Shown here in pieces: positions 40,801 to 43,800 of a stretch of 64,000 nucleotides of DNA. The number at the start of each line of letters is the position of its first letter. Positions within the stretch are counted from its first letter, which is position 1. Under the pieces are notes generated by a model. It saw nothing but the letters and a program-made list of their open reading frames with translations, was not told the origin of the DNA and made no database searches. The stretch covers positions 21,063,432 through 21,127,431 of the forward strand of contig NC_092679.1 of the NCBI RefSeq assembly GCF_964355755.1, read 5' to 3'. This DNA is from Antedon mediterranea (Eukaryota > Animalia > Echinodermata). A program made the position numbers and the translations under genes.

Positions 40801-43800
40801 GGGTACCTATTTTGTGCTAGACAGATGGCAATAAACAATGGATACCGATTTCGAATAAGAACCGAAATGTATTTATTTATACGTTTTTGTATTGTTTCGG
40901 AAAAATACAGTTTATCATTGCCGATAAAGAGGCTTAGCATTTATTAGAGCTAGCTAGCTAAGCAAACTCTATTCAAGAAGGCTCATCGCGTGGGCCGCGA
41001 TCGCGACAGGACAGGGTCCACTAGGCCTAGCCATAGTGCAGCTAGTGAGTGAACCTAGGCCTAGGCCAATCATTTTTTTGGCAAATCTGTAAGTCGAAGT
41101 TCGCGTAACTCAAATTTTTATACCGGTCCTATTAGATTCGACTTAGGCGGAGTCGACTTTATATTAAGTATATCACCAGGCGCTTTAGAATACATATTTC
41201 ATTATTGCATGTTATTAGTGTTAAAATTGTTATTAATAGGATGCCATGAATTACTGGTTGGAACTTGGTGTTGATGGAATGGTCATAACCAATGTTGACT
41301 CAGTCGTTGACTCAGTTGGTGAGAACTCCCGCAGACGTCGTCAAGCAGCTGTTACCAATGACACTGTAACCGGTGAAACTATGGCTCCAACTATGGCTTC
41401 AAGTGAAGCAGCAACTACTGCCATGATGCCTGAACCAGAAGCAACAAAATCCACCAATATGGATGGTGCAGATACCAATATGAACGGTGCAGAGACCGGC
41501 GCACCTGAACCAGAACCAACTGTAAGTGTACATCTGGTTTGGTTTTCTGTCACGGCCTGATCTAGTCCAACATACAATGTCTAGTAAAAAATCTGGGGTA
41601 GTCAAATGTTGCCTTGCGAAAATTTGCATTAAAAAAATGCCATCAAATTGCATTACATATGTTAGCCTAGTAAAGTCTGCAGCCTGCTATCCTAGTTTAG
41701 TGTGTAGTTAAAAAAAGAAAGACATGTCTATAGGAAATTCACGGTTAAATATTTCGACATTAAATTATTAGTATACAGTATTTAAAATTAGCATTTAAAT
41801 TATATTAAAAATTTTACTTTCAGTATGTTGTTCTTGAAGATGACAAGATTGTGCAAGACCGCATCGCCCAGTGGCGTGAAGTTTTCACTGACAACTCCTA
41901 CCTTGGAAAATACAGGTAAACTTCTATGAATCTAGGCCTACTATTTAAACACCTCTTTTAAAGCAGAAGCATACTCTGACATTGTGTTCCTGTGCATCAT
42001 GCTAGGATTTGCACTAGGAGTCTTACCTGATGTTTCTACCATCAGAATAATAGTTGTGGAGTACCATGAACCTGTGCCCTAATTTCACTAGTTACCACAA
42101 TATATTAGTGCAATTTCCCATTGCAATAAATGATTAACAAATATTTTAATAATCTTTTTAGACTTCTTCTGACATCTGGAGCCGACTCAATTGAAAGTGC
42201 CGTCACGCAGTATGGCAACGAGGACAGACTCCTTGCCGATATACCTCTGAACATTCAGTTCCTGGAATCCATCAGTGGTACTCCTTCTGGTGATGACATC
42301 AGTGCTTCCATCGACGCTTGGGAGGAAGCCAAAGAGAACATTGACGAAAAGACAGCCAGTCGTTGGAATAGTTGGATGGTTAGAAAATAGTATACTATAT
42401 TATTACCGTACTGACGCGGGTATAAGCCCACCCCCCTCGAACATGAAATCACGTCAAGTTTGGGGGGTGGGCTTATACCCGAGGATCCAAAAATGCAGAT
42501 CGTCAAAAACAGCACATGTACACTGTGTATTCCACCATGCGAGCGAGCGCCCTCACGTGTAAGACGTTGCCTCTAAATACACGAGGTGTAGAGTGTCGGA
42601 AAATTAAGTTTATAGTTCATGTAATTTATGGTAGAATATCTTATTTTAAACATCAATTTAACAAGAATTTATCAAGCAGAAAAGCAAGTATACAATGTTC
42701 GTTAAATAGAAATGTACCAAAGAAATTTAATAAGCTTGTTTATGGCAGCCGATACGAAATAGTGGTTTTCCGTTTTGGCGACTTGTAGCGTCGTGTGTGA
42801 AGCGATCTTCGATGGAGTGTAAACAAAACAGGACCGCTAGGCCTCATATGGCCTAGCGTATATTAGCCTAGCTTGGTTATGATCAAAGGTAGGTGTATTC
42901 GGTGTATGGACGTCGCCAAATACAAAATAATGTATTACGACACACACTGTAGATCTTCGAATTAATGGGTGGGCTTATACCCGAGTGCCTCATTTTTCAT
43001 GAAAATTAGTCAAAAGTCGGGGGTGGGCTTATACCCGAGTATGGGCTTATACCCGCGTCAGTACGGTAAATAAATAAATTCGCTGATATTAATAAAGAGT
43101 TTATAACGCTATACAGTATTATTTTACACTGGTTTCTTTGCTAAACAAGTACAATTCTAATTCGATTACATGTATTCCTAGTCTCACTAAAAACGCACCA
43201 TTACTGTAAGGAATGTGTTAAATTAAGCCATTTATTATTTATCACTATTAACATTTACTCTGTATTCTGTGTTATTTAGCTAAGCAACAACAATGTCAAT
43301 CGTCTAGCCAAACGATGCAGTTCAGGCCTTGTAAACGTCATGAACACCCTTCTGCTCACCTTGCCTGGAACACCTATCGTTATGTACGGAGAAGAGCTTG
43401 GTATGCAAGGCAATGCAGATAATGACAACTTCAACGTAAGTAACAATAACGCTTTCTTTCTTTTTACTCTTAAACAGCGCATAGAGACTATTTGAATTTT
43501 GTGCTATACAAATTTACGACTATTAATCATACTGTATTTATTGTGGCTTTTACCACAAATACCGGATAGTTTATTGTCAGAATTTTTATATTTATAATGA
43601 TTAATTCTTTTTAATAATTATTAAATATGTTTTTCAATACAGCAACTTGCACCAATGTCCTGGGCATCATCTAAAAATGCCAATTTCTCCAAAGCTACAC
43701 CATGGAAGGCTCTGGATAGCAAGTGGATGGAGAACAATGTTGAGGTATAATATAGTTTAATAAAATCACCTGAATGAAATTAAAGAGTTTTCTTTTTTAA

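Follow-up and report, generated by a model that had tools for sequence, protein, structure and literature searches.

Gene C, one of three tandem SLC3-type genes in the window (the whole 64,000-nucleotide stretch of Antedon mediterranea DNA analyzed here), encodes a protein with the sequence and fold features of an SLC3 heavy chain, and behind strand β-4 of its TIM barrel stand a tetrabasic furin-type site and a low-complexity linker. The reading that we favor, with somewhat better than even confidence, is that furin nicks the barrel after β-4 without the two halves coming apart, so that the linker would be left as a free N-terminal tail carrying glycans. The site and a linker of this kind are found in all nine orthologues identified.

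Gene Model and Splicing of the Insert

Gene A lies on the minus strand and genes B and C on the plus strand. The gene models are as follows.

37875-44218, + strand: gene C, SLC3 heavy chain; 10 coding exons, 656 aa, model equal to P0001
37875-38211, 39134-39322, 39611-39741, 40173-40298, 41240-41521, + strand: gene C exons 1-5
41824-41915, 42162-42378, 43280-43435, 43643-43744, 43880-44218, + strand: gene C exons 6-10
37875-38211, + strand: gene C exon 1; cytosolic N-terminus, one transmembrane helix and neck Cys81; Pfam SLC3A2_N
~38040-38105, + strand: gene C transmembrane helix (modelled helix 47-77)
38115-38117, + strand: gene C neck Cys81, in register with the human 4F2hc neck Cys in the alignment
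41240-41521, + strand: gene C exon 5; residues 262-355, comprising the end of helix 3, strand β-4, the basic site and the linker
41824-41915, + strand: gene C exon 6, 92 nt; helix α-4 (modelled 360-378), where the chain re-enters the barrel
14420-23334, - strand: paralogue A, 10 exons modelled; exon 5 without insert and without site
27202-34436 (end approximate), + strand: paralogue B; exon 5 without insert and without site

All splice sites of the ten-exon model of gene C are canonical, there is a single terminal stop, and the translation is letter-for-letter the same as P0001, which carries the NCBI name 'maltase A2-like [Antedon mediterranea]'. Exon 5 is bounded by AG and GT, is in phase 0-0 and contains no stop. 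Its length of 282 nt, against 141 nt in gene A (18181-18041) and 138 nt in gene B (29774-29911), had been pointed out in the preliminary description and is confirmed by the gene models. Since exon 6 is also shorter in gene C than in A and B (92 vs 116 and 137 nt), the insert is a replacement rather than a pure addition; taken together, exons 5 and 6 encode 33 to 39 aa more than their counterparts in A and B.

Three of the five sequencing runs listed were compared with gene C. None of the five is recorded as RNA, and X1 was taken to be RNA on account of its spliced contigs. All nine junctions of gene C occur with GT..AG in these contigs, including 40298>41240 and 41521>41824, and one 1,950-nt spliced contig spans 41240-41521 whole, so that use of the full 282-nt exon, which the preliminary description had left to be confirmed, is now observed. 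Runs X2 and X4 are unspliced, and gene C junctions are absent among their joints listed. Splice evidence at the level of contigs loses rare isoforms and is drawn from the joints listed, beyond which there were 21 more, so a minor internal donor, such as the GT at 41319 or 41366, is possible. Within exon 5, the run contigs differ from the window at five positions. Four of these changes are silent, among them a SNP in the codon of the first Arg, and the fifth turns a Ser of the linker into Pro.

Intron 3 of gene C holds a short tandem array of ~36-bp units (39765-39945), and introns 4 and 7 are filled with high-copy repeats. In the 3′ region of the gene, all three runs have contigs that lack a 179-bp stretch at 44350-44530; because this holds for the DNA-like runs too, it is taken as an insertion polymorphism and not as an intron.

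The Basic Site and the Linker

The following features were located within exon 5.

41267-41293, + strand: degenerate β-4 motif; nucleophile Asp replaced by Thr278, conserved Arg by Val276
41309-41311, + strand: Asp285, aligned with the rBAT Ca2+ ligand Glu321; acidic in 8/8 orthologue clusters
41330-41341, + strand: tetrabasic furin-type site R292-R295; predicted cut after R295, then Q296
41342-41521, + strand: low-complexity linker Q296-T355, 60 residues, predicted disordered
41354-41362, + strand: sequon N300, in the linker

R292-R295 is the sole R-x-[K/R]-R in the gene C protein. Its codons are mixed (CGC AGA CGT CGT), so the tetra-Arg stretch does not stem from a DNA microsatellite. The linker consists of about 24% Ser+Thr, 19% Ala, 17% Asp+Glu and 9% Pro, and its DNA contains short duplications (41453-41494 and 41429-41445/41504-41520). 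The first description of an RRRR at these positions, followed by a linker of ~60 aa with a sequon and repeats, stands. It had also placed the RRRR right behind the β-4 motif; the two do share an exon, but the site lies 13 residues past the end of the motif. The luminal position then assigned to the loop in a type II protein is supported by the SLC3A2_N match (77 bits, cut-off 27) and by helix 47-77.

Fold and Family Membership

An AlphaFold2 model of the gene C protein, built with 107 sequences, has a mean pLDDT of 86.8 and a confident barrel, with values <50 over residues 290-346. The block 281-290 is partly ordered (mean pLDDT 71), and residues 289-297 are drawn as a helix at low confidence. 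The best structural matches found by Foldseek are rBAT, and also GH13 glucosidases; superposition on 7nf7 gave a VIA Z of 40.1 and an rmsd of 2.1 for 501 aligned residues.

rBAT (SLC3A1, GH13_35; PDB 7nf6, 6li9, 6yup) is also the best whole-protein sequence match (E 1.6e-76). It shares with the gene C protein the type II topology, the neck Cys, a barrel with subdomain B-I and domain C, and the Ca2+ ligands. Where rBAT carries subdomain B-II, however, the gene C protein carries the basic site and the linker, and it lacks both the B-I disulfide and the Cys-rich C-terminal hairpin of rBAT. The only cysteines of P0001 are Cys81 and Cys471, and no conserved ectodomain Cys pair linking the halves was found in the eight orthologue clusters, all of which retain the neck Cys. 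Alignment to rBAT breaks at query 286/rBAT 323 and resumes at 369/362, so that the loop faces rBAT 324-361. In rBAT, B-II comprises residues 318-355, forms part of the rBAT-rBAT super-dimer interface and is needed for maturation (PMC9110406, PMC8537225), and Ca2+ bound at N214, D284 and E321 ties it to B-I (PMC9110406). As judged from this alignment, the insert takes the place of B-II; because B-II is missing, a super-dimer of the rBAT type is probably absent or different. N186, D248 and D285 align with the three rBAT ligands, and the aligned residues are N, D and D/E in 8/8 clusters.

The active site had been called degenerate, and it is: T278, S391 and N463 occupy the positions of the catalytic triad in P0001, and the acid/base Glu is absent in 8/8 clusters, whereas active GH13 glucosidases carry Asp/Glu/Asp. 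Loss of catalytic residues is shared with 4F2hc (CD98hc, SLC3A2; GH13_34), to which exon 1 is closer than to rBAT (60 vs 40 bits). In contrast to 4F2hc, which has no domain B (PMC8537225, PMC9110406), the gene C protein keeps B-I and a long loop. On sequence and modelled fold, gene C is thus an SLC3 heavy chain of neither the rBAT nor the 4F2hc type, and as a member of the family it would presumably pair with an SLC7 light chain. The N-terminal barrel loops face the light chain (PMC8537225), and the loops behind each strand lie on the cleft side; the insert therefore likely points away from the membrane.

Conservation among Orthologues

Three protein searches yielded eight orthologue clusters that scored far above all other matches: two from crinoids, one each from Acanthaster, Patiria and Diadema, one containing Holothuria leucospilota, and P0005 and P0006. 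A ninth orthologue, on metagenome contig L001, is near-full, has a continuous ORF and groups with Diadema; it is one of six loci from a metagenome scan, among which L002 holds exon 1 only and is hence uninformative on the site. The third homologue search, which used a profile of 12 sequences and whose reach was set by word seeding, brought no further clade member, and a named brittle-star orthologue is absent from the results of the homologue searches. A search of 50% representatives returned P0002 as the sole clade member among the best 150. In the ESM Atlas, the whole gene C protein matched generic SLC3/GH13 clusters, and residues 262-390 gave scores under 0.9 only.

R-x-[K/R]-R followed by a low-complexity linker is present in 9/9 orthologues, from crinoids, starfish, sea urchin and sea cucumber, so that the suggestion that orthologues might keep RxRR despite divergence of the linker is borne out. 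P4 and P1 are Arg throughout, and P3 and P2 are always Arg or Lys. Gln occupies P1′ in 8/9 (Ala in L001) and Ala occupies P2′ in 7/9, while the flanks of the site vary freely. Each protein has one such site only, and in every case the linker begins with it, 18-27 residues past the β-4 Gly. The linkers run to 50-90 residues with 17%-36% Ser+Thr, vary in length and can scarcely be aligned between classes. Ser/Thr residues start at P2′-P5′ (P5′ itself is Ser/Thr in 6/9), an N-glycan sequon lies ≤7 residues after the site in 5/9, and P7-P14 are Val-rich.

For comparison, 279 other homologues were selected from 325 proteins by a length of 400-950 aa and by removal of duplicates and of co-members of the clusters, and genes A and B are counted among them; many of the 279 are bacterial. 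The β4-α4 loop has 89-136 residues in the eight clusters vs a median of 50 in this set, in which only 2/279 have a site in the loop (1/96 of those with a TM-like segment). The two are Amphiura P0184, which groups with gene B, and the Trichinella maltase P0212, both without a long linker. Their isolated sites are of the R-x-[K/R]-R or RPRR type, and the Trichinella members listed in the P0212 cluster all keep theirs. Anywhere in the ectodomain, R-x-[K/R]-R occurs in 5/94 TM-bearing homologues. When the eight orthologous loops were shuffled 20,000 times each, the motif arose in 0.4%-1.3% of shuffles. The basic site in these loops is more than chance.

Origin of the Insert

A tree of 28 rows was computed with the loop cut from the nine clade rows; an earlier quick tree had kept the loop columns, and neither tree contained a 4F2hc sequence. 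With the loop removed, the nine orthologues are monophyletic (support 100/99), and their sister group is hemichordate, Saccoglossus P0121 and Glandiceps P0122 (93/91). Both have an ordinary β4-α4 loop with no insert there. Chordate rBAT and the echinoderm clade lie on separate branches, with weak deep nodes (80/58, 81/87). SLC3 ancestry is reportedly the subject of work by Gabrisko and Janecek from 2009. The simplest reading of the tree would be that the insert was gained once on the echinoderm stem and retained since the classes split; they diverged roughly 480 million years ago. Given a single origin, the nine orthologues count as one long-kept event and not as nine.

At another place in the barrel, the post-β-8 loop of P0121 has 103 residues, the longest of 288 rows (median 31), and contains RKR followed by an S/T-rich stretch; in P0305, a Glandiceps paralogue, one isoform extends this loop by 42 residues that are likewise S/T-rich. 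The insert of P0121 is possibly a parallel invention. It is only a lead, because P4 is not Arg and a single gene model is concerned.

The tandem array itself looks old: adjacent Holothuria accessions (KAJ8045078.1 and KAJ8045079.1) fall in clusters that group with genes A and C, and two Glandiceps relatives are found on equal-sized contigs.

Proposed Processing and Its Alternatives

We consider it quite likely that the gene C protein is cleaved at the basic site and, granted cleavage, very likely that the C-terminal piece is retained. The protein would fold uncut in the ER, bind Ca2+ via N186/D248/D285 and join an SLC7 light chain via Cys81. In the Golgi, the linker would be O-glycosylated and furin or a related convertase would cut once after R295. 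This would leave an anchored piece (1-295; strands 1-4 and subdomain B-I, about 33 kDa) and a C-terminal piece (296-656; strands 5-8 and domain C, about 40 kDa without its glycans), which would remain one barrel without a disulfide; the halves should stay together because the closed barrel needs both. A heavily O-glycosylated chain is stiff. As long as both its ends are fixed, a loop cannot stretch out; cutting one of them would set the linker free as a tail of 50-90 residues that faces outward from the ectodomain and would most likely serve as a spacer in the glycocalyx or as a ligand for adhesion or for lectins.

Furin requires an accessible site with the core R-x-[K/R]-R, small residues at P1′ and P2′ and a P1′ that is not glycosylatable, and it prefers accessible, polar flanks at P14-P7 and P3′-P6′ (PMC3281273). 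The site in the orthologues fits these core criteria, including a non-glycosylatable P1′. In the gene C protein it is luminal by topology and lies in a region predicted to be disordered from residue 290, as accessibility would demand; the Val-rich, partly ordered P7-P14 and the low-confidence helix at 289-297 speak against cleavage. Furin is reported from echinoderms (PMC10381214), and furin1 from bilaterians (bioRxiv 802215).

That the loop is left uncut, or is cut only conditionally, has a minor but real share of the probability. The basic cluster would then act as a patch for binding or enzyme recognition (of acidic glycans, the acidic linker or a glycosyltransferase) under a shield of glycans. 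This would account for the basic P3 in 9/9, which goes beyond the needs of furin, and for the sequons close behind the site in five of the nine; glycans there could shield it from cleavage, an effect documented only for P1′ (PMC3281273). An RXR upstream of the modified Thr modestly aids POMGNT2 selectivity on dystroglycan (PMC8360118), and P5′ is often Ser or Thr here. However, the TPT that POMGNT2 requires is missing at that register in every orthologue, and the restriction of Lys to P3 and P2, with P4 and P1 always Arg and P1′/P2′ small or Gln, is the pattern of a convertase site and not of a generic charge patch.

Cleavage followed by shedding of the C-terminal half as a soluble glycoprotein, with the membrane stub left on the light chain, is improbable. 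No disulfide would hold the halves, the furin cut in α-dystroglycan does free a domain (PMC4582122, PMC4453867), and some light chains of 4F2hc arrive at the cell surface even when its ectodomain is missing (PMC8537225). Against shedding, both halves are conserved across the clade, and the cut would separate strand 4 from strand 5 in a closed barrel of eight strands, modelled with high confidence on both sides, so that parting would be expected to unfold them; in the model, a bound C-terminal half suits the fold much better than a shed one.

We give still less credence to a maturation switch, in which the uncut loop would block oligomerization, the cleft or transport until the protein is past the Golgi. 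The loop begins right after a Ca2+ ligand and sits in place of B-II, which controls super-dimerization and maturation of rBAT (PMC8537225, PMC9110406). Yet a single site at one end keeps the linker attached, so nothing is removed, and a linker of unconstrained length (50-90 aa) and sequence is more what one would expect of a spacer than of a plug with a specific fit. An annotation artefact or neutral expansion (a retained intron or drifted repeat with chance arginines), to which the linker duplications, the tolerated Ser-to-Pro polymorphism and the loss of rare isoforms from joint-based contig evidence might lend a trace of support, is extremely improbable and is largely refuted by the whole exon in a spliced contig, the continuous ORF in L001 and the retention of the site in four echinoderm classes.

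Two further roles for the site itself were considered. One in ER retention was rejected, since RxR motifs of that kind act in the cytosol and the site is predicted to be luminal. Pyroglutamate at the new N-terminus, for which Gln at P1′ would be suited, is no requirement, as L001 has Ala.

Comparison with Furin-Cut Proteins

Integrin α chains, Notch and the LAR-type phosphatases are furin-nicked two-chain receptors, in which one convertase cut is made and the pieces stay together. Their cuts are made at domain boundaries or within an interdomain linker, whereas the cut proposed for gene C falls inside a TIM barrel.

α-dystroglycan has a furin junction, R-x-RRQ, directly before its mucin domain, and the junction is also conserved in a sea urchin (PMC4582122, PMC4453867). 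The likeness to gene C extends to the Ser/Thr/Pro-rich region that follows and to the Gln that a cut would make the new N-terminus of the mucin. The folds are unrelated, however, and the upstream domain, which is released from α-dystroglycan, is the membrane anchor in the gene C protein. Core M3 glycans made through POMGNT2 need a TPT motif (PMC8360118), and TPT at P5′-P7′ was found in 0/9 orthologues; a matriglycan site of the dystroglycan type is rejected for this reason. Another case of furin processing of an O-glycosylated ectodomain is described in PMC13570299.

Neither a furin nick nor a mucin tail is unusual in itself; what appears to be new is to find them within an SLC3 barrel. In the mostly open-access literature searched, no paper on proteolytic cleavage of SLC3 proteins or on echinoderm SLC3 was found, and the accessible parts of an SLC3 review (PMC8537225) describe no proteolytic processing.

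Other Features of the Window

An acceptor-like AG precedes the first modelled exon of gene A (23334), so its model probably lacks another coding exon at the 5′ end. The last coding exon of gene B is interrupted at 33196-34270 by an element of 1,075 bp, which has long inverted repeats at its termini and a duplicated TTT target; the frame continues behind it. A contig of run X1, with a depth like that of gene B, covers 34387 beyond the element and suggests an allele or transcript without it.

Four similar ORFs of ~130 aa resemble fatty-acid-binding proteins (45974-47113, 49503-49925, 58814-59335 on the minus strand and 62484-62891 on the plus strand), and three of them are apparently intronless. 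Pfam matched Lipocalin_7 only in the plus-strand ORF at 62484-62891, with a sub-threshold score of 24.4 bits. The stretch 53734-57627 contains pieces of a LINE-type reverse transcriptase, with Pfam RVT_1 at 53779-54234.

Implications

The role of the glycosidase-like ectodomain of SLC3 proteins has been called largely unknown (PMC8537225). The echinoderm clade offers a natural experiment on it, in which the tolerance of the ectodomain to a nick, the dispensability of B-II while the Ca2+ site is kept and a role as a glycan scaffold can be addressed. The database names, maltase or rBAT-like, need correcting, as the catalytic triad is missing and the proteins form a clade of their own. A wider reading has, in our view, a little under an even chance of being right: that since the origin of echinoderms the dead glycosidase barrel of one SLC3 heavy chain, split by furin, has clasped a free, glycan-bearing mucin tail above an amino-acid transporter, by an R-x-RRQ/mucin junction like that of dystroglycan and in place of the super-dimer interface of rBAT, and that hemichordates may have invented a basic site and S/T-rich tail separately in a different loop. 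The reach of the finding is confined to echinoderms unless parallel cases are confirmed; if it is true and the hemichordate parallel holds, the mounting of a cleavable glycan tail would be a recurring job of the SLC3 ectodomain.
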